From NCBI RefSeq assembly GCF_044905095.1, contig NZ_CP173258.1, positions 2,931,277 to 2,995,276 of the forward strand: a stretch of DNA of 64,000 nucleotides, in the 5' to 3' direction. The stretch is from Sphingomonas sp. MMS24-J13. Its GTDB lineage: Bacteria; Pseudomonadota; Alphaproteobacteria; Sphingomonadales; Sphingomonadaceae. Positions 1,390-40,014 of this stretch are shown here, piece by piece (within the stretch, counting starts at the first letter, position 1; the number at the start of each line of letters is the position of its first letter). The notes beneath the pieces are model-generated. The model ran no database searches, was not told where the DNA came from, and saw only the letters and a program-made list of their open reading frames with translations. Made by a program: the position numbers and the translations under genes.

Positions 1390-3393
1390 GTGACCCTGGT
1401 GCTGACCGTCGCGGCGACGGCCGGTATCCTCTACCTTTCGAACCTGCTGCTGGTGGCGCAGCAGATGCCCGATCTGACGCGCCATATCTATCTGGTCGTC
1501 TACGGCATCATGACCTTCTTCCTCGCCGGGAATTTCTTCAAGCTGGTGCTGGGCACGTGGCATATGCTGCGCGGGGCCGAGGGCAATCCGTGGCATCCCG
1601 CGCGCACCGCCTGCGATCCGCCGGCCGATACGAAGGTCGCGATCCTGTTTCCGGTCTATCATGAGGAGGTCGATCGCGTCGCCGCCGGCATTGCCGCGAC
1701 ATGGGAATCGATCGCGCAGAAGCACCCGCGTTTTGCGCAGCATTTCGACGTCTTCCTGCTCTCCGACAGCCGCCAGCCGGAATATCGGGTCGTCGAGGAG
1801 GCTGCGGTTCACGCCTTACGCGAACTCTTCCCCGACGCGCGCTTCTTCTATCGCTGGCGGCCGACCAACCAGAACGCCAAGATGGGCAATGTCGCCGATT
1901 TCTGCCGGCGCTGGGGCGGCGATTACGATTACATGCTGGTGATGGACGCCGACAGCGTGATGGACGGCGATGCCGTCGTTACGTTGCTGCGGATGATGGC
2001 GGGCAATGACCGCCTCGGCATCCTCCAGACCAATCCCAAGCCCGTACTGCGCACCAGCCTGTTCGGGCGGATGCAGCAATTCGGCGCGCGCCTCTATGGC
2101 TCGGTTTTCTCCTATGGCTTGCAGGCCATGTACATGGGGAATGCGAGCTATATCGGGCACAACGCCATCATCCGGATGGCGCCGTTCGTGCGCCATTGCA
2201 TGCTGCCCGAACTGACCGGCCCCAAGCCGTGGGGCGGAAAACCGCTGAGCCACGACATCGTCGAATCCGCGATGATGGCGCGCGCGGGCTACGAAGTGTG
2301 GTTCCTCGCCGACATGGAGGGCAGCTATGAGGAGATGCCCGCCAACCTGCTCGCCTTCCTGATCCGCGAGCGGCGCTGGATGCAGGGCAATCTCCAGCAT
2401 CTGCGCTTCGTCTTCCTGCGCGGGCTGAGATCGATCCACCGCGAGACCTTCATCAACGGATCGATGGGCTATTTCGCGGCGCCTCTATGGGCGGTGTTCC
2501 TGGTCGTATCGGCCTACGGGATGCTCCATTTCCTGCGCTACGGCGTGCTCGCGCTCGGCAGTTTGCGCACGATCGAGATGCCGATGCTGATGCTGCTCAT
2601 CTCGAGCCTCGTCTTCCTGTTCATGCCGCGCGTGCTGGCGATCCTGATCCATATCCGCAGCGACAAGGCGCGCCTGTTCGGCGGCAAGGACAAGCTGATC
2701 TGGTCGGTGCTGCTGGAAACGCTCTTCTCGTTCTTCTTCTCACCGCTGATGATGGTCTACATCAGCCGCTTCCTGTGGATGTGGCTGAAGCGCAAGGGCA
2801 TCAGCTGGGGCACGCAGCAGCGCGGCGACGAGCCTTTGCCGTGGGACCAGTGCGTGCGCCATTTCGGCTGGATCAGCGCGATCGGCGTGGCCTGCCTGCT
2901 GGGCATGATCTACCAGATCACGCAGGTGCCCTGGACGCAGCAGGTGTTACTCTCCGCCATGTCGGGCGGGATGGTGCGACCGACCGACCTGATCCTGTGG
3001 TTCGCGCCGATCATCGGCGGTTTCACCGCGAGCATCTGGATCGCGCGGGTGACGAGCCTGACCTTCCCGTCAGTGGCACGGCGCAACCTGTTCGCGATCC
3101 CGGAAGAGATCGAGACGCCCGACGTGGTGAAGGCGCTGACGATGTGGGATGAGCATTTCCGCGCGATGTTGCCCGATGTCACCGATCCAACGCGCGCGAT
3201 CGCAGAGGTGTTGCGCGATCCGGGCTTCTACGTGCGCCACCGCCGCGAAACACGGGTGCGGCCGCGTGTGTGGGAGACGTTGGGGCGCAAGATCCAGACG
3301 GGGGTGCGACTGAAAGCAGCCGAGCTGCAACTGGCGCTGAGCGAACGGCGCTGTTTCGACGCGCTGCATGTGGCGAGTTTGGGAAAGATCTAA
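1390..3393 (+). CDS. opgH: Glucans biosynthesis glucosyltransferase H (OpgH/MdoH, GT2)
   Basis: GTG start. Motifs LLSDS, FCRRWGGDYDYMLVMDADSVM, ILQTNPKP and LIRERRWMQGNLQHL match MdoH. Multiple TM segments flank the catalytic domain. Confidence 0.85.
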   Translation: MTLVLTVAATAGILYLSNLLLVAQQMPDLTRHIYLVVYGIMTFFLAGNFFKLVLGTWHMLRGAEGNPWHPARTACDPPADTKVAILFPVYHEEVDRVAAGIAATWESIAQKHPRFAQHFDVFLLSDSRQPEYRVVEEAAVHALRELFPDARFFYRWRPTNQNAKMGNVADFCRRWGGDYDYMLVMDADSVMDGDAVVTLLRMMAGNDRLGILQTNPKPVLRTSLFGRMQQFGARLYGSVFSYGLQAMYMGNASYIGHNAIIRMAPFVRHCMLPELTGPKPWGGKPLSHDIVESAMMARAGYEVWFLADMEGSYEEMPANLLAFLIRERRWMQGNLQHLRFVFLRGLRSIHRETFINGSMGYFAAPLWAVFLVVSAYGMLHFLRYGVLALGSLRTIEMPMLMLLISSLVFLFMPRVLAILIHIRSDKARLFGGKDKLIWSVLLETLFSFFFSPLMMVYISRFLWMWLKRKGISWGTQQRGDEPLPWDQCVRHFGWISAIGVACLLGMIYQITQVPWTQQVLLSAMSGGMVRPTDLILWFAPIIGGFTASIWIARVTSLTFPSVARRNLFAIPEEIETPDVVKALTMWDEHFRAMLPDVTDPTRAIAEVLRDPGFYVRHRRETRVRPRVWETLGRKIQTGVRLKAAELQLALSERRCFDALHVASLGKI

Positions 3394-3396
3394 AAC

Positions 3397-3496
3397 GACC
3401 CGTCATTCCCGCGAAGGCGGGAGACGCGGTCCAGCGAAGCTAATCCATATTCTCAAAGGTTCGGAGTTTATGGATCCCGCCTCCGCGGGGATGACG
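3397..3496. repeat. Palindromic MITE/REP-like element, family A (TIR cgtcattcccgcg-aggcggga ... tcccgcct-cgcggg-atgacg, nested tccatat/atatgga)
   Basis: Nearly identical architecture and termini recur at 60258..60356. A half-copy lies at 35263..35293. It sits in a convergent intergenic gap. Confidence 0.7.
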
Positions 3497-3504
3497 TAGG
3501 AAAA

Positions 3505-5328
3505 TCAACCCGCCAACGCCTCTGGCCCGGACCGCGCCTGCGCCACCACGACCCGATCGCGCCCGGCGCGCTTGGCCTGGAGCAGGCACGCGTCGGCCGT
3601 CTGCACCAGCCGGTCGGAAGGGCAATGGTCCGGCGCGGTCGCAACTCCCAACGACGCCGCGACCGGCCCGAGCTCGCGCCCCTCGTGCCAGACCCGCAGG
3701 GCCGCAACACGCCGGCGGATCTCCTCGGCGCGATCGGCCGCATGCGCGGAATCGACCCCCGGCAACAGCACGAGGAACTCCTCGCCGCCGTGGCGGAAGG
3801 CGAGATCGCGATCGCGCACCAGTTGCTTGAGCACGGTCGCGACCGCCTGGATCACCTCGTCGCCGGCATCATGGCCATATTCGTCGTTGAAATGCTTGAA
3901 ATGATCGATGTCGAGCATGATCGCGCTGATCGATGCACCATCGCGATCGGCTTCGGCCAGTTCGGCCTTGAGCACGCTCTCCAGCCGCCGGCGATTGGCG
4001 AGCGCGGTCAGTGGATCGGCCAATGCCTGCCCGCGCAACGCGTCGCGCAGTTGCAGATTGTCGAGCGCCAGCCCGACGTTCTCCGCCAGCGTGCGCAGAT
4101 AAACTTCGGGCACGGGATCGGCGAGGCGACCGGCGAGACGCTCGAAATAGAGCAGGCCCAGCGTGCCATGCTGCGCAGCAAGCGGCATGCATATGCTGTC
4201 GGGCAAATCCGCGCCCTCGTGCACAATATGATCGCATGGGACATCGAGCCGGCTGCCCGCCGGACGATGCGGAATGCCCCGCCGCAGCCCCCAGCAGGCC
4301 AGAGGTGGGAATTCCGGTTTGGATGCGACCGGATCCAGCCAAGACGAGGCCTCGACCATCGCATTGCGGCTGCGATCGAACAGATAGAGCCGGCCGGCCA
4401 GCTGCGGCGCGATCTCGGGCACGAAGCGTTCGACCACATGGCGCAGATCGTCGGTCGTATCGCAGCTCTGCATCCGCTGCGTCATGCGCGAGAGCAGATC
4501 GCGCACCAGGCGATCGGCATCGCGCTCCTGTTCGAGCCGCTGACGCGCGAGGCCATTTTCGCGGAAGATGCGCAGCGCCTGCGACATGTCGCCGATCTCG
4601 TCGACCTGCTGGAGCATCGGCGGCTCGGCGGCATAATCCTGCGCTGCCAGCCGTGTCACCACATCGCTGAGCTTGATCACCGGGTGCAGCACGCGCCGAC
4701 GGAACACGAAATAGAGCACGAACAGAAAGAGCAGCCCGGTCACGGCCAGCAACGTCTCCGAAGCCCCGCGCCACAGCCGCGACGTGCCGATCGCAGCGTT
4801 GAGCGCCGTATCGGTGCGCTGGTCGATCCGGTCCTGAAAGCGCTCGACGCTGCTCTGGATACGATCGAGTTCGCGTTCATATTCCGGTGAGAACAGGATC
4901 GCGAGCGCATCGCCACGTTTTCCCTGCTGGAGCGCCGCGAGTGCCGTCTGCTGCTCGTCGCGTAGCGCATCGGCCCAGCGCATCGTTTCGTGCAGCATGC
5001 GCAGCTCTTCGGGGCTGGCGCCGGCATCGCGGATACGCGCCGTGCGCGCCTCGATCGCGCCCAGCAGACGCGCTTCGCGCCGGTAGGCAGCTAGGTCGGC
5101 CGGATTGCCGCTGATCACATATTGCCGCGCCAGCCCGCTCAGCTGCGCGACATCCTCGTCGATGGTCGAGGTCGCATGATCCAGCGTCTGGCGCTCGACC
5201 GCTACAGCCCGCTCGCGCTCCTGCGCCGAAGAGGCGGCAAGCATGGTCGCACCCGACGCTAACGTAAGCGCGACAGTGATGCCATAAGCCCAGTTGGTGA
5301 TCGTCGCCAAGCGCATGGCGGGCAGCAT
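3505..5328 (-). CDS. Membrane sensor diguanylate cyclase (2 TM + HAMP + sensory region + GGDEF)
   Basis: C-terminal GGDEF domain with RHGGEEF active-site motif. N-terminal TM, periplasmic helical region, second TM. Confidence 0.8.
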   Translation of the reverse strand: MLPAMRLATITNWAYGITVALTLASGATMLAASSAQERERAVAVERQTLDHATSTIDEDVAQLSGLARQYVISGNPADLAAYRREARLLGAIEARTARIRDAGASPEELRMLHETMRWADALRDEQQTALAALQQGKRGDALAILFSPEYERELDRIQSSVERFQDRIDQRTDTALNAAIGTSRLWRGASETLLAVTGLLFLFVLYFVFRRRVLHPVIKLSDVVTRLAAQDYAAEPPMLQQVDEIGDMSQALRIFRENGLARQRLEQERDADRLVRDLLSRMTQRMQSCDTTDDLRHVVERFVPEIAPQLAGRLYLFDRSRNAMVEASSWLDPVASKPEFPPLACWGLRRGIPHRPAGSRLDVPCDHIVHEGADLPDSICMPLAAQHGTLGLLYFERLAGRLADPVPEVYLRTLAENVGLALDNLQLRDALRGQALADPLTALANRRRLESVLKAELAEADRDGASISAIMLDIDHFKHFNDEYGHDAGDEVIQAVATVLKQLVRDRDLAFRHGGEEFLVLLPGVDSAHAADRAEEIRRRVAALRVWHEGRELGPVAASLGVATAPDHCPSDRLVQTADACLLQAKRAGRDRVVVAQARSGPEALAG

Positions 5329-6019: not shown

Positions 6020-6904
6020 TCAGCGCAGCTTCAACGTCATGCTCTGCTGCCGCCCGATGCCGTGCAATTCCACCCGATCGGCAAAGAAATCGAGCACGGC
6101 ATAGGCCGTCTCTTCGGTATCCAGCATCGCCTTCAGATTTACATAGTGGATGCCGTCGCGCAGCCCGTAATTGCCCTCGTGATTATGCCCGTCGAGCCAC
6201 ACCTTCACCGACGGGTGCCGCTCGAGCAGCGCGATCACATCGGGCGCGTTCCACAGATTGTGCGGGTTTTCCGGCCAGAGCGGGAAGTGGCTGAACAGCA
6301 TCACCTTGAGCCCGCGCCGATCCGCCTCGCTAAGCCGCGCGTCGATCCAGTCCATCTGCGCCTCATCGATCGCACCGTCCCAGAGAGGTTTATCGGGATA
6401 GTGCACAGCGTGCACCGCCATCGAATGCGCCAGCTCGGCGCTGCCCTGCGGCCAGGCGTAGGCGCTGAGCCCGTTGCCATCGGTGACGATGAACATCCAG
6501 CCATGGTTGACGAAGCGGTGATAGCGCGCCGGCATGCCGAGCCGGGCGGGCACCCTTGCCTTGTCGGCATCGTCGACCCCGAAATCATGATTGCCGAGCA
6601 CGAACCGCCACGGGTGCCGCAGCTTGCCGGCGATCGGCAGCAGCGCATCATAGCTCTTCATATCCTTGTCGATGAAATCGCCGAGATGAACCGCGAAGGC
6701 GAGCTTGCGCCGGTTGAAATCCGCCACCGCTGCCGCGAGCTTGCCCGGCGCGGTATGGTAGAGCCGCGGCGGTGCGTCCGGCTCGTCAGCATATTGGCAA
6801 TCGGCGATGGCGCCGATGCTGAACAAGGGTTGCTCCGCTAACGCGGGCACGGCGGCGAGGCCGGCGAAGGCCAGCAGCAGCTTCAGGATCGGGCGCATGA
6901 GCAT
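6020..6904 (-). CDS. Secreted calcineurin-like metallophosphoesterase
   Basis: N-terminal signal peptide. Metallophosphatase motifs GDFIDKD, GNHDF and GHNHEG. Confidence 0.7.
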   Translation of the reverse strand: MLMRPILKLLLAFAGLAAVPALAEQPLFSIGAIADCQYADEPDAPPRLYHTAPGKLAAAVADFNRRKLAFAVHLGDFIDKDMKSYDALLPIAGKLRHPWRFVLGNHDFGVDDADKARVPARLGMPARYHRFVNHGWMFIVTDGNGLSAYAWPQGSAELAHSMAVHAVHYPDKPLWDGAIDEAQMDWIDARLSEADRRGLKVMLFSHFPLWPENPHNLWNAPDVIALLERHPSVKVWLDGHNHEGNYGLRDGIHYVNLKAMLDTEETAYAVLDFFADRVELHGIGRQQSMTLKLR

Positions 6905-7079
6905 CCTTCGGGTTCGAATCGCGCGCGCCTTCCCACCCGCCGCCCGGCTTGACCAGTGGCCGTGTCACAGCAGCTTCACATAGCGCCCCTACCCCGCAAA
7001 AAAATTTCCGAATCAGGGGACGAAGGGTGGCCGGCAACGGAACGCTGCGACAGGCGGCGGCCCTCGTGGTGCCGTCGCG

Positions 7080-7622
7080 ATGACCGAATTTGCGCCGATC
7101 GTCGAGCGCCGCCGCATCGCGGCCGAGGACGCCGATCTGCGGCGCGCCTTGCAGCGCTTCGTCGAGGCGCGGCTGCGCGATCGCACCGACAGCGAGGATC
7201 TGGTGCAGGAGACCTACCTGCGCCTCTACGATTATCGCCGTACGCGATCGGTGGCGGATGTCGGCTCCTTCTGTTTCGCGATCGCGCGCAACCTGGTCCG
7301 CGATCATGTTCGTCGGCTGCGCGGCACGCCGGCGGCCGCGGAGCTATCGGAGGAGATCGTCTGCCCCGCCCCGCGCGCCGACGAGATCCTTGCCTATCGC
7401 GAACGCGTCGATGTGCTGACCCGCGCTCTGAAGGCGATGCCGGCGCTCCGGCGCGAGGTGTTCACCCGCCGCCGGCTCGACGGCATGCCGGTCGCGACGA
7501 TCGCGGCGGATCTGGACCTGAGCGTCGCCGCGGTGGAAAAGCATGTGGTGCGCGCGCTCGCCGATCTGCGCGCCGCGCTCGATCGCCGCGGGCTCGCGCT
7601 GGGAGCATCGAATGACCGCTGA
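7080..7622 (+). CDS. ECF-type RNA polymerase sigma factor (FecI-like)
   Basis: Sigma-70 region 2 (DLVQETYLRLY) and region 4 HTH. Overlaps the downstream FecR gene. Confidence 0.85.
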   Translation: MTEFAPIVERRRIAAEDADLRRALQRFVEARLRDRTDSEDLVQETYLRLYDYRRTRSVADVGSFCFAIARNLVRDHVRRLRGTPAAAELSEEIVCPAPRADEILAYRERVDVLTRALKAMPALRREVFTRRRLDGMPVATIAADLDLSVAAVEKHVVRALADLRAALDRRGLALGASNDR

Positions 7623-8507: not shown

Positions 8508-8605
8508 CCACCCGTCACCCTGAACTTGTTTCAGGGTCCACCGTACGTACCGCACTGTCTGTGTAAATTGCCTGGTGGATGCTGAAACAAGTTCAGCATG
8601 ACGAA
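8508..8605. repeat. Large palindromic element, family C (arms gtcaccctgaacttgtttcagggtccacc / ggtggatgctgaaacaagttcagcatgac)
   Basis: Each arm is itself a hairpin (ctgaac-ttg-tttcag). The two arms are inverted repeats of each other separated by ~30 nt. It lies in the promoter region of the STN-TonB receptor. Confidence 0.55.
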
Positions 8606-11717: not shown

Positions 11718-11866
11718 AGCCCCCGCTTCTTCGGAGGCGGGGGCTTAACCCGGATACTCGTCACCCCGGCTTTGAGCCGGGGTCCCGCTGCCTTTCGACG
11801 GACCGGAAAGAGCGGGAGCCCGGGTCAAGCCCGGGGTGACGATTTAATTTGGGCGGGAATGACCTC
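11718..11866. terminator. Terminator hairpin (gcccccgcttcttcggaggcgggggc) plus composite array of palindromic repeats
   Basis: Perfect GC hairpin right after the receptor stop. It is followed by cgtcaccccggctttgagccggggtc ... gacccgggtcaagcccggggtgacg inverted repeats and a gcgggaatgacc half-site of family A. Confidence 0.6.
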
Positions 11867-13568: not shown

Positions 13569-14996
13569 ATGGCGGGCGACGATCAGCGGGCATGGGCGGC
13601 AATGGCGCAGGCCGCGCGCCACGCGATCGACTATCGGCGCGGGATCGCCACCGCCGAAACGACGCCCGCTGCCAGCTATGCCGACATGCTCGCGGCCTTC
13701 GCCGGCCCTGTCCCTGAAAATCCCGGCGATCCCGAACGGATCATCGGCGAGCTGGTCGAGCGCGCCACGCCCGGCATCCGCGCCTCGACCGCTCCGCGCT
13801 TCTTCGGCTGGGTGATCGGAAGTTCGCATCCGACCGGCGTCGCGGCCGACTGGCTGGCATCGGCGTGGGGGCAGAATGCGGGCAATCTCGTCGCGGCGCC
13901 GGCCTCGTCGGCGATCGAGGCGGTCGCGGCCGGCTGGCTGCTCGATCTCCTCGGCCTGCCGGCCGAAGCTTCGGTCGGATATGTCACCGGCGCCACCGTC
14001 GCCAACTTCGTCTGTCTCGCCGCGGCCCGGAGCGAGATGCTGCGGCGGGTCGGCTGGGACGTCGAGGCGGATGGGATGTTCGGGGCGCCCCCGATCGAGA
14101 TCCTGATCGGCGCCGACGCGCACGCGACCGTCTTTTCCGGCCTCAAATATCTCGGCTTCGGCGCGAAGCGGGTCACCACGATCGAGACCGACGCCATGGG
14201 CCGCATCATCCCTGCCTCGTTCGAACAAGCGGTGCGTGCCAATGCCGGCCCGAAGATCGCGATCCTGCAGGCCGGGCAGATCAACACCGGCGCCAGCGAT
14301 CCGTTCGAGGAGATCGTACCCATCGCGCACGATGCAGGCGCGTGGTGCCATGTCGATGGCGCGTTCGGCCTGTGGGCGCAGGCGAGCACAGCTTATCGGG
14401 ATCAGACGCGTGGCGTCGCGCTCGCGGATTCGTGGGGCACCGACGGCCACAAATGGCTCCAGACGCCGTACGATTGCGGCTTCGCGATCGTGCGCGATGC
14501 CGAGGCGCATGCCCGCGCGATGGCGATCTCGGCCAGCTATTTGCCGGGCTCCCAAGGCGCCGAGCGCGATCCCTCCGCTTACGTGCCCGAGCTCTCGCGC
14601 CGCGCGCGCGGCTTCGGCACCTGGGCGATGATCCGGCAATACGGACGCAGCGGCATCGCCGAGCTGGTCGAGCGCAATTGCGGCGTCGCGCGCTTCATGG
14701 GCGAGACTTTGGCGCTGGAGCCCGGGATCGACCTGGTCTGCCCGGTGGTGCTCAACCAGTTCATGCTGCGCTTCCATGCCGAGGGCCGCGATGTCGATGC
14801 GCTGACCAAAAAGGTGGTCGAGCAGGTGCAGGCCGACGCGGTGGCGTTCATCGGATCGTCGTTGTGGCGCGGCCAGTGGGTGATGCGCGTATCGGTATCG
14901 TCCGCGGCGACGACGTTCTCGGATGCCGAGGTGACGGTGGCGGCGGTGATCAATGCTTGGCGGAAAGTATCAGCCAACCCAGTCGCCCCTGCGTAG
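13569..14996 (+). CDS. Pyridoxal-phosphate-dependent decarboxylase (group II, fold type I)
   Basis: DGHKWLQTPYDCGF lysine motif typical of DDC/GAD-like decarboxylases. The start at 13569 (MAGDDQ) was chosen because the 13401 start overlaps the peptidase gene. Confidence 0.7.
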   Translation: MAGDDQRAWAAMAQAARHAIDYRRGIATAETTPAASYADMLAAFAGPVPENPGDPERIIGELVERATPGIRASTAPRFFGWVIGSSHPTGVAADWLASAWGQNAGNLVAAPASSAIEAVAAGWLLDLLGLPAEASVGYVTGATVANFVCLAAARSEMLRRVGWDVEADGMFGAPPIEILIGADAHATVFSGLKYLGFGAKRVTTIETDAMGRIIPASFEQAVRANAGPKIAILQAGQINTGASDPFEEIVPIAHDAGAWCHVDGAFGLWAQASTAYRDQTRGVALADSWGTDGHKWLQTPYDCGFAIVRDAEAHARAMAISASYLPGSQGAERDPSAYVPELSRRARGFGTWAMIRQYGRSGIAELVERNCGVARFMGETLALEPGIDLVCPVVLNQFMLRFHAEGRDVDALTKKVVEQVQADAVAFIGSSLWRGQWVMRVSVSSAATTFSDAEVTVAAVINAWRKVSANPVAPA

Positions 14997-15073
14997 GCAG
15001 GGGCCCATCTCTCCAACCATTTAAGCCGCCTCTCGTGCCAAAAGACATGGGCCCCTGCCTGCGCAGGGGCGAC
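14982..15073. repeat. Palindromic MITE-like element, family B (TIR gtcgcccctgcg-aggcaggggccca ... tgggcccctgcc-gcgcaggggcgac)
   Basis: A second copy with near-identical 25-nt TIRs lies at 29107..29198. The left TIR contains the last 5 codons and the TAG stop of the decarboxylase. Confidence 0.7.
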
Positions 15074-15081
15074 GGGAGAGG

Positions 15082-29021: not shown

Positions 29022-29106
29022 GCGAAGCCGCAACGTTAAAGTTCGGCCCCGCGCCCGAACCGGGCGCGGGGCCGAATTCATTTTGGCGCCACCGTCCCAC
29101 CAAAGC

Positions 29107-29198
29107 GTCGCCCCTGCGAAGGCAGGGGCCCATGTCTCTCGTTACCAGCGGCATCGTCTGTGGATGGAGAGATCGGCCCCTGCCTTCGCAGGGGCGAC
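29107..29198. repeat. Palindromic MITE-like element, family B, second copy
   Basis: TIRs gtcgcccctgcgaaggcaggggccc / ggcccctgccttcgcaggggcgac match the copy at 14982..15073. Six-frame ORFs over both copies give the same MGPCLRRGD peptide. Confidence 0.7.
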
Positions 29199-29248
29199 GG
29201 ACGAGGACTGGGGAGGACCGGTTTAGCCGCCGACTCGGCAGGCCCGGA

Positions 29249-34792: not shown

Positions 34793-35224
34793 TCAGCCCC
34801 CCGGCTTCATCTGCTGCATCATCGTGCGCAACTGGGCCAGTTCGGCCTTGTCGACGAAGTTGTCATGGTCGGCATCGGCGCGATCGAACAGCAACGGCGG
34901 CGCGGCGGCCAGCTCGGCCCTGGTGACCTTGCCGTCATGATCGCTGTCCATCGCCGCGATCATCGCGTCGATCCGGGCAGCGGCCTGCGGGCGGAACTTG
35001 AGGATCCGCGTGAAATCGAGGCGACTGATGACGCCATCGCCGTTGCGATCCAGGCGCGCAAAATCGGCGGCGCGGGCGGCGATGAACTCGGCGCGGCTGA
35101 TCCGGCCGTCATGATCGGTATCGGCCTTGTCGAGCATCGCGGCGGGATCGCGACCCGGCATCCGCGCCGAGGCGGGGATCGCGACGAGCGTTGCGGCAGC
35201 GGTGGCTAGGAGAAAGGTACGCAT
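34793..35224 (-). CDS. Secreted EF-hand calcium-binding protein (four EF-hand loops)
   Basis: Signal peptide, then DTDHDGRISRAEF, DRNGDGVISRLDF, DSDHDGKVTRAEL and DADHDNFVDKAEL loops. Confidence 0.7.
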   Translation of the reverse strand: MRTFLLATAAATLVAIPASARMPGRDPAAMLDKADTDHDGRISRAEFIAARAADFARLDRNGDGVISRLDFTRILKFRPQAAARIDAMIAAMDSDHDGKVTRAELAAAPPLLFDRADADHDNFVDKAELAQLRTMMQQMKPGG

Positions 35225-35262: not shown

Positions 35263-35293
35263 CCCGTCATCACCGCCTTCGCGGGAATGACGG
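35263..35293. repeat. Degenerate half-copy/hairpin of family A repeat (cccgtcatcaccgccttcgcgggaatgacgg)
   Basis: Shares the gtcat...gcgggaatgacg termini with elements at 3397 and 60258. Confidence 0.45.
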
Positions 35294-35319
35294 GGTCGTT
35301 CAAGCGCGGTCGAGGGGCT

Positions 35320-35727
35320 TCATTGCGGGGCGCGGGTCACCACACCGCTGACGGTCGCGCTGCTGCCGTCGATCCGGTTGCGCGTGGTGGAGAAACTGGC
35401 GGTGCCGTCGCCATTGGCAGTCGCCGTGGTGGATCGGCCGAAGCTTTCGCCGTTGTTGAGCGTGTGGGTGGCACCACCGGTGTAAGTGCCGTCGGCGACA
35501 CTGCCCGAACGGGTGCTGGTCACGCCGCGCCCCGAATTGGTCTGAAAGCTGCGATTGGCCGAAACGCTGCCGGGCTGGCGATCGACCGACCGCGCTGCGA
35601 CATAACCGCGCCCGCCCGAACCCTGCACGCTGACCGCACGGCCGTGGAAGCGCGCCTCGGCGGGCATTGCCGCCCAGGCGATCGTTGCGACGACGGCGGA
35701 CGCGGCAATGGTGGTGATGCGAAACAT
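35320..35727 (-). CDS. Small secreted Gly/Ser/Thr-rich hypothetical protein
   Basis: Signal peptide MFRITTIAASAVVATIAWAAMPAEA. Low-complexity mature part. High GC3. Confidence 0.4.
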   Translation of the reverse strand: MFRITTIAASAVVATIAWAAMPAEARFHGRAVSVQGSGGRGYVAARSVDRQPGSVSANRSFQTNSGRGVTSTRSGSVADGTYTGGATHTLNNGESFGRSTTATANGDGTASFSTTRNRIDGSSATVSGVVTRAPQ

Positions 35728-39744: not shown

Positions 39745-39933
39745 ATGGGCATGCAAAGCTCGACGGATCGGGATTATCTGCGCAAGCGCGAAGTCGAGGA
39801 GCGTGAGGCTGCGGCGAAAGCGGCGGATGGTGCCAGGCTGATCCACCTGGAACTCGCCAAGCTCTATGCCATGCGGCTGGAGCGTGACGATGACGGGCCG
39901 TTGCTGCGCGCTGTCGGCGGATCGAACGCCTGA
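39745..39933 (+). CDS. Hypothetical small charged protein (62 aa)
   Basis: High GC3. Lys/Arg/Glu-rich helix. 81 nt upstream of the ClpP-like gene on the same strand. Confidence 0.3.
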   Translation: MGMQSSTDRDYLRKREVEEREAAAKAADGARLIHLELAKLYAMRLERDDDGPLLRAVGGSNA

Positions 39934-40014
39934 CATCGATAAATCGTTTTTTCCATGAACTCTGGCGCCCATAGCGGCGTTGTCGCGCCTCTATTCTCTC
40001 AACTCAGGTGATCG

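Follow-up and report, generated by a model that had tools for sequence, protein, structure and literature searches.

Palindromic repeats of a Sphingomonas genome are head-to-head CGTC-1 REP dimers and probable recognition sites of an Ssn-type nuclease

Introduction

The CGTC-tagged REPs were defined by Di Nocera, De Gregorio and Rocco (2013, BMC Genomics 14:522; PMC3733652). A CGTC-1 REP has an unpaired terminal CGTC (or TGTC) tag and a hairpin whose 8-bp stem has A-T as its first two pairs and whose loop is 4 nt long; a tail of about 3 nt, CCA, follows. The units occur mainly as head-to-head (HH) dimers with the tags outside and with spacers of 20-100 bp that are often conserved. CGTC REPs reside mostly in Alphaproteobacteria, and several families exist side by side in S. 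wittichii, where most of the CGTC-1 copies analysed lie less than 20 bp from ORF 3' ends in convergent or unidirectional gaps; in Neisseria the CGTC-1 REP corresponds to dRS3 (PMC3733652). An association with transposase genes was not seen and no dedicated transposase is known, and many REPs have been argued to be transcribed and to act as RNA (PMC3733652).

The Neisseria repeat was redefined by Chenal et al. (2025, Nat Commun 16:2388; PMC11893778) as the 28-nt NTS CGTCATTCCCGCGMAVGCGGGAATCYRG and generalised to the Ssn-related motifs (SRM). The SRM-rich taxa named there include R. wittichii and Sphingomonas. The 94-aa GIY-YIG nuclease SsnA binds the hairpin in ssDNA only, with cleavage a few nucleotides upstream of it; dsDNA and RNA are not cut. 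Cleavage critically requires the GTC that precedes the palindrome, and binding the C that follows it. Binding and cleavage are documented for the Ssn enzymes of Neisseria and Wolbachia, and Ssn genes are typically flanked by their own motif; an analogy to insertion sequences was offered for the spread of the motif as a hypothesis only (PMC11893778). In later literature on Ssn we found nothing relevant beyond Chenal et al. 2025.

Here we analysed 64,000 nucleotides of Sphingomonas sp. MMS24-J13 (the window). A preliminary description had pointed to a family of palindromic repeats of about 100 bp, family A, as REP/MITE elements that double as terminators. We put the probability at roughly 85% that family A consists of dispersed head-to-head CGTC-1/NTS (SRM) dimers which are ssDNA-hairpin recognition sites of an Ssn-type nuclease.

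Results and discussion

Copies in the window

Two full copies, A1 and A2, and a solo palindrome are present in the window. The features are as follows.

3401 (CGTC) to 3496 (GACG): A1, full copy, by direct sequence reading
3401..3422, plus strand: A1 left unit, CGTC-ATTCCCGC-GAAG-GCGGGA, by direct reading, located allowing up to 3 substitutions
3423..3442, plus strand: A1-specific 20-nt insertion GACGCGGTCCAGCGAAGCTA, between the left hairpin and ATCCATATTC
3443..3469, plus strand: A1 spacer, ATCCATATTCTCAAAGG conserved family-wide, centre TTCGGAGTT shortened
3470..3496, minus strand: A1 right unit, CGTC-ATCCCCGC-GGAG-GCGGGAT-CCAT, an ATCCCC/GGGGAT variant with a 1-nt deletion
60262 (CGTC) to 60357 (GACG): A2, full copy, by direct sequence reading
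60262..60289, plus strand: A2 left unit, CGTC-ATTCCCGC-GCAG-GCGGGAAT-CCAT, intact, fits the published SRM pattern
60290..60329, plus strand: A2 spacer, complementary ends ATATTC..GATGATAT, GC-rich 27-nt centre
60330..60357, minus strand: A2 right unit, CGTC-ATTCCCGC-GTAG-GCGGGAAT-CCAT, intact, fits the published SRM pattern
35263..35294, no strand assigned: degenerate solo palindrome CCCGTCAT-CACCGC-CTTC-GCGGGA-ATGACGGG, tagged on both strands

Each full copy is composed of two inverted units of the form CGTC-ATTCCCGC-GNAG-GCGGGAAT-CCA(T) with the CGTC ends facing outward and a spacer of about 40-47 nt between them. The preliminary description had placed the copies correctly at 3397-3496 and 60258-60356, the limits from CGTC to GACG being 3401-3496 and 60262-60357, and the end sequences that it quoted agree with our direct reading. 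The inner inverted pair that it had noticed is present, yet the inner repeat of A1 reads TATGGA and not ATATGGA. Likewise the two centres differ as reported, that of A1 being shortened and that of A2 GC-rich, but the A2 centre measures 27 nt instead of 29 nt.

The arms of A2 are 97% complementary over 30 nt. As ssDNA the left unit of A2 is predicted to fold into an 8-bp stem with a 4-nt loop, and in the predicted fold of the right unit 7 of the 8 stem pairs are formed. The units of A1 are degenerate, the left one being devoid of the AT and the tail and the right one carrying a 1-nt bulge. The insertion displaced the 3' AT and the CCA tail of the left unit; because it sits between the left hairpin and ATCCATATTC, the unit is without its AAT-CCA end. 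These 20 nt are missing from A2, from eight aligned Sphingomonas copies and from the orthologous copy at locus L133. In the alignment, the intact form of the A1 right-unit variant, GCGGGGAT, is the usual right arm of other Sphingomonas copies.

The 12-mer GTCATTCCCGCG with no more than one mismatch occurred six times in the window, while 1.17 occurrences were expected and six were reached in 0 of 100 shuffles. Both copies were predicted to fold far better than shuffled sequences with z-scores of -4.7 to -9.7 as RNA and of -4.8 and -9.4 as DNA.

The site at 35263-35293, previously listed as a half-site, is real with a 14-bp stem containing 2 mismatches and 19 of 21 unit positions matched. It is, however, rather a degenerate solo unit which extends to 35294 and is tagged on both strands. 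It is without the post-palindrome C on which SsnA binding critically depends (PMC11893778). Like A1, it appears to be a decayed copy. A related half-site had also been proposed at 11851-11864. This is merely a 12-mer with one mismatch and, because chance alone would give the window about one such match, we consider it unsupported.

A1, A2 and the solo site have in common about nine extra nucleotides outside one CGTC end (3391-3401, 60252-60262 and 35294-35305). The shared extension reads TAMAA(C)GACC, or GGGTCGTT on the other strand, and is absent from the copies in other Sphingomonas genomes. It could be lineage-specific or it could reflect a target preference near the expected Ssn cut site.

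Comparison with CGTC-1 REPs and Ssn-related motifs

Each of the four units in A1 and A2 begins with CGTC, and stem, loop and tail of both A2 units are those of a CGTC-1 REP, i.e. ATTCCCGC / G(C/T)AG / GCGGGAAT / CCA. The tags of the dimers are on the outside and the spacers are within 20-100 bp. As to dispersal, there are three copies near ORF 3' ends in the window and seven loci elsewhere with unrelated flanks. Both ~100-bp palindromes are ordinary copies of a described repeat, namely head-to-head pairs of CGTC-1 REP hairpins (PMC3733652), and on this point the preliminary description, which had called them REPs, was right. With identical tag, stem, loop, tail, HH dimers and post-stop location there is no difference in kind from the published family; A1 is damaged by the 20-nt insertion and the 1-nt deletion, and in the window copies one end is extended by the ~9 common nucleotides. 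The family, the sphingomonads that harbour it and its partner enzyme have all been described before, and thus we claim no novelty at the level of kind. The window offers a textbook instance of a repeat family that was catalogued in 2013 and whose protein partner was identified in 2025.

The identity with the Neisseria NTS/dRS3 motif and with its known protein partner had been overlooked in the preliminary description. The A2 units match the NTS consensus CGTCATTCCCGCGMAVGCGGGAATCYRG at 27 of 28 positions, the sole mismatch being a T for G at the last base. They possess the GTC before the palindrome, i.e. the determinant of cleavage, and the C after it, the determinant of binding. Furthermore, both A2 units fit the SRM search pattern HGTCWYN(0-2)YYVSBRHN(0-5)WNVSBRGN(0-2)RNCYNB (PMC11893778), of which 0.52 matches were expected per shuffle. 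The A1 units and the solo site did not match this pattern, and the strict regular expression for the Neisseria NTS yielded 0 matches in the window. Since they do not fit the SRM pattern and are without key positions, A1 and the solo site are possibly inert relics.

The core palindrome ATTCCC-N8-GGGAAT is identical to that of Neisseria dRS3/NIME. On the other hand, the NIMEs of Neisseria are long mosaic arrays of RS units with dRS3 between them, the NTS copies form large clusters and dRS3 in addition serves as a target of prophage integration, whereas each element described here stands alone as one dimer in a short intergenic gap. No Rfam family matched the window, which was searched in full at gathering thresholds; thus family A is not a curated RNA family.

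Gene context

That the copies lie directly after stop codons in convergent or tandem gaps had been stated before and was borne out by our analysis, with distances of 3-8 nt for both full copies and of 3-25 nt for all three window copies. A1 fills a convergent gap of 111 nt between the stop codons of a GT2 glycosyltransferase (1390..3393, plus strand) and of a HAMP-GGDEF protein (3505..5328, minus strand). A2 begins 7 nt past the stop of a TonB-dependent receptor (60364..63039, minus strand), and 46 nt separate it from the ATG of a TPR-sulfotransferase gene downstream on the same strand. The solo site, between two minus-strand genes, is located 25 nt past the stop of the ORF 35320..35727 and upstream of the next gene, the ATG of which is at 35224. 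For annotation the elements are of value in that they account for spurious small ORFs encoding peptides of the VIPAKAGI or SFPRRRES type.

A position immediately behind stop codons and RNA hairpins as stable as -52 to -74 kcal/mol are what one would expect of terminators or of 3'-end stabilising hairpins that were selected in place and have no partner at the DNA level, and many REPs have indeed been argued to act as transcribed RNA (PMC3733652). As the sole explanation of family A this is nevertheless quite unlikely. The hairpins are not followed by a U-tract or T-run and neither copy was called terminator-like in a consensus scan, i.e. the canonical signature that the suggested double role as a terminator calls for is missing. 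In addition, a conserved spacer at unrelated loci together with empty orthologous sites (see below) bespeaks the spread of a DNA element and not local evolution, and SsnA does not act on RNA (PMC11893778). A role at the RNA level as a secondary effect is compatible with recognition of the hairpins by an Ssn nuclease.

Dispersal, occupied and empty sites

The 23-nt core GTCATTCCCGCGNAGGCGGGAAT was found in more than 120 IMG/VR contigs with a GC content of 41-72%, including arrays of the Neisseria type. A 24-mer spanning unit and spacer identified seven loci in the genome contigs searched, two of them in Sphingomonas sp. Root710, three in the Sphingomonas MAG G04_MAG_00018 and one each in another Sphingomonas MAG and in an assembly titled 'uncultured bacterium'. 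Only the ~95-bp element aligns to the window, with an identity of 77-85%, while the flanks are unrelated; the element breaks off sharply with CGTCAT at one end and ATGACG at the other, and its spacer is conserved. At least three other Sphingomonas genomes contain this ~95-bp dimer, conserved spacer included, at unrelated positions. Because the alignment is limited to the element with sharp ends and unrelated flanks, we conclude that it was dispersed as a whole dimer and was not duplicated locally. The preliminary description had likewise favoured dispersal, and the non-syntenic loci of other Sphingomonas genomes agree with this.

Among the relatives of the GGDEF protein next to A1, those with 90-92% identity came from metagenome or Logan contigs only and named species did not exceed 69%. 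The orthologous A1 site is empty at L134 (92% aa identity), where the convergent genes overlap at their stops, and is occupied by an 80-bp homodimer at L133 (90% identity). The spacer of A1 in the window is oriented opposite to that in L133 (window 3380-3510; L133 4813-4898; L134 2420-2430). The glycosyltransferase residues that follow VASL differ, being RN, SHN and GKI, each followed by the stop; it follows that insertion at the overlapping stops rewrote the end of the gene. The elements can thus alter both the final codons of an adjacent gene and its stop, as with the GT2 gene beside A1. At the A2 site, the syntenic but more distant L139 (74% and 69% aa identity) has a 72-nt gap without a unit. 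The proposed use as a marker for genome plasticity and strain typing fits this polymorphism with an A1 site that is empty in L134 and an A2 site that is empty in L139, and the elements mark sites which differ among close relatives.

Two phage-like IMG/VR contigs, L013 and L115 (46-53% GC), contain five exact 23-nt cores each at distances of about 1-5 kb. Several of these copies directly precede a ribosome-binding site and start codon. It follows that phages of quite different hosts also use the motif or have acquired it.

Linkage to a GIY-YIG nuclease gene

No GIY-YIG or Ssn gene was detected in the 64-kb window by regular expressions and tblastn, which returned only noise with E values of at least 0.2, e.g. 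at 39851-39997. Related genomes differ from the window in this respect. L122, one of the seven loci, contains a single-domain GIY-YIG ORF of 104 aa (gene 6801-7115; PF01541, E = 4e-15), which starts 18 nt after a family-A dimer and is followed by another unit. Its orthologs with 74-87% identity are found in R. wittichii RW1 and DC-6, in R. phycosphaerae and in a Root710-like contig. They occupy a conserved arrangement, rpmI-rplT-[gene]-pheS-pheT, with the gene at 3001-3315 in L128, L130, L131 and L132. In these four loci and in L122, exact ATTCCCGC..GCGGGAAT units, mostly dimers, stand on both sides of a gene for 102-104 aa with PF01541 as the only domain. The motif thus flanks a single-domain GIY-YIG gene in the relatives (L122, L128, L130, L131 and L132), not inside the window, and this arrangement in related genomes, a gene for about 100 aa with the motif on both sides, is the published NTS-ssnA-NTS architecture.

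The NCBIfam search with the Sphingomonas GIY-YIG protein gave no match, and the PDB search only a weak one to a UPF0213 protein (1zg2, E = 0.0099). Judged by the Pfam GIY-YIG domain, its size and its architecture, the gene is a candidate for the cognate nuclease. A second GIY-YIG paralog of Root710, P0087, lies between fliO and dxs and is bracketed by another CGTC unit, ATGCTGAAC..TTTCAGCAT. For 23 further homologs on viral contigs, CGTC units were present within 300 nt in 14 cases and on both sides in 11.

The conserved position between rplT and pheS across Rhizorhabdus and Sphingomonas looks like vertical inheritance of a domesticated gene and not like a hopping element.

The closest parallel among other repeats is the REPIN type, i.e. 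the GTAG-tagged REP doublets of Pseudomonas and E. coli, which are mobilised by RAYT, a Y1 transposase. Family A shares their gross architecture of two inverted REP hairpins with a spacer, able to fold as one long hairpin, and its copies are likewise dispersed, non-autonomous and polymorphic in presence and absence without a regular target-site duplication. In both systems the cognate enzyme is encoded by a single-copy gene whose position in the chromosome is conserved and which has its own repeats on either side. Yet the tag is CGTC instead of GTAG, CGTC REPs are not associated with transposase genes (PMC3733652), and in every context examined the bracketed gene encodes a GIY-YIG nuclease, which is unrelated to the HUH/Y1 transposases. 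We consider it very unlikely that family A is mobilised by a RAYT.

Target sites

The size of about 100 bp, terminal inverted repeats of 28-30 nt and several dispersed copies would also suit a classical MITE, that is, a deletion derivative of an IS whose terminal inverted repeats are recognised by a DDE transposase. At the A1 site alone, an imperfect direct repeat of 8-12 nt from the stop region flanks both occupied alleles (L133 and window). By eye this appeared to be a convincing target-site duplication. It was dropped after a permutation test of the flanks of 17 dimers, for which the preliminary description had left the matter to be checked, gave a mean score of 3.88 compared to 3.93 for the null and hence no general signal. 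Moreover, each supposed terminal repeat is a self-contained hairpin that also occurs singly, no parent IS or link to an IS-type transposase was seen at any of the loci examined, where the bracketed gene was the GIY-YIG nuclease, and the motif is common to genomes of 41-72% GC, unlike any one IS family. Thus we abandoned the MITE label, for which we see hardly any probability left. Without a general target-site duplication and without a U-tract, family A qualifies neither as a classical MITE nor as a canonical terminator.

That the similarity is due to chance or to a local duplication within the window alone, to which the mere three copies in the window and the chance-level fourth site at 11851-11864 might point, has a probability of practically nil and is refuted by the GTCATTCCCGCG count that no shuffle reached and by the same element, with a published motif, at unrelated loci in other genomes.

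Recognition and spread of the dimers

We favor the view that family A consists of recognition sites of an Ssn-type nuclease. Each unit would fold as ssDNA into an 8-bp stem with a 4-nt loop (ATTCCCGC-GNAG-GCGGGAAT), with unpaired CGTC before and C(CA) after it. This oriented hairpin would be recognised by a small single-domain GIY-YIG endonuclease of the Ssn family and, because the dimer is inverted, each strand would present one correctly oriented site. The candidate for the cognate nuclease would be the rplT-pheS gene of the Rhizorhabdus/Sphingomonas lineage, which is itself bracketed by units. The ~95-bp dimer including its spacer would have spread to many unrelated intergenic sites right after stop codons, so as to be present or absent among close relatives without a regular target-site duplication.

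For this view we draw on what was observed, namely how the copies are built and dispersed, which orthologous sites are occupied or empty and that relatives carry the nuclease gene next to the units, and for the nuclease activity on the analogy to the Neisseria and Wolbachia enzymes of the literature. Because the 64-kb window holds no GIY-YIG or Ssn gene, we only infer a partner nuclease in this organism, the genome of which presumably encodes it. The enzyme would be expected to cut A2 well and A1 and the solo site poorly, and either the nuclease or another ssDNA process presumably spreads the dimers. A secondary effect of the RNA hairpins on the 3' ends of flanking transcripts is possible. In Neisseria the system limits transformation; the Sphingomonas host is not known to be naturally competent and so this role may not carry over. 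The wider question is what Ssn nucleases and hundreds of hairpin sites do in non-competent bacteria and how the sites spread.

A more far-reaching proposal is speculative, and we would sooner doubt it than accept it. The ~95-bp dimers might be non-autonomous replicators that are spread by the rplT-pheS-linked GIY-YIG nuclease in a REPIN-RAYT-like manner with an unrelated enzyme. The four CGTC families of the window (see below) might each be served by an Ssn paralog of their own, as exemplified by the second Root710 paralog with its unit of the fourth family (family D). The insertions close to stop codons, the inversion of the spacer and the imperfect direct repeat at A1 might then be footprints of a new ssDNA-based insertion mechanism.

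Other CGTC dimer families in the window

A generic scan for a CGTC tag followed by a hairpin detected 12 units in the window compared to 3.25 in shuffles. In addition to family A there are three more dimer families which follow the same plan with different stems:

14979-15076 and 29106-29199: second family, two head-to-head dimers, cgtc GCCCCTGC gnag GCAGGGGC cca
11758-11842: third family, head-to-head dimer, cgtc ACCCCGGC tttga GCCGGGGT ccc, with an 8-bp stem and a 5-nt loop, CGTC-2-like
8512-8603: fourth family, dimer, cgtc ACCCTGAA cttgt TTCAGGGT cca / cgtc ATGCTGAA cttgt TTCAGCAT cca

The two dimers of the second family are 83% complementary to each other over 93 nt, and their first stem positions are GC and not AT. 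The third-family dimer ends 10 nt before the site at 11851-11864. A further match on the minus strand at 62056-62081, cgtc ATCCTATCC gacc GGATCGGAT, is located inside the coding region of the TonB receptor; since it has no partner unit and no family resemblance, it is probably due to chance.

The unit ATGCTGAA(C), which corresponds to the window dimer at 8512-8603, brackets the Root710 paralog P0087 (L129 2941-2965 and 3335-3359). This fourth-family unit around P0087 suggests that cognate pairs of nuclease and repeat coexist in one genome. With several families and paralogs side by side, sphingomonads would be a good system for their study.
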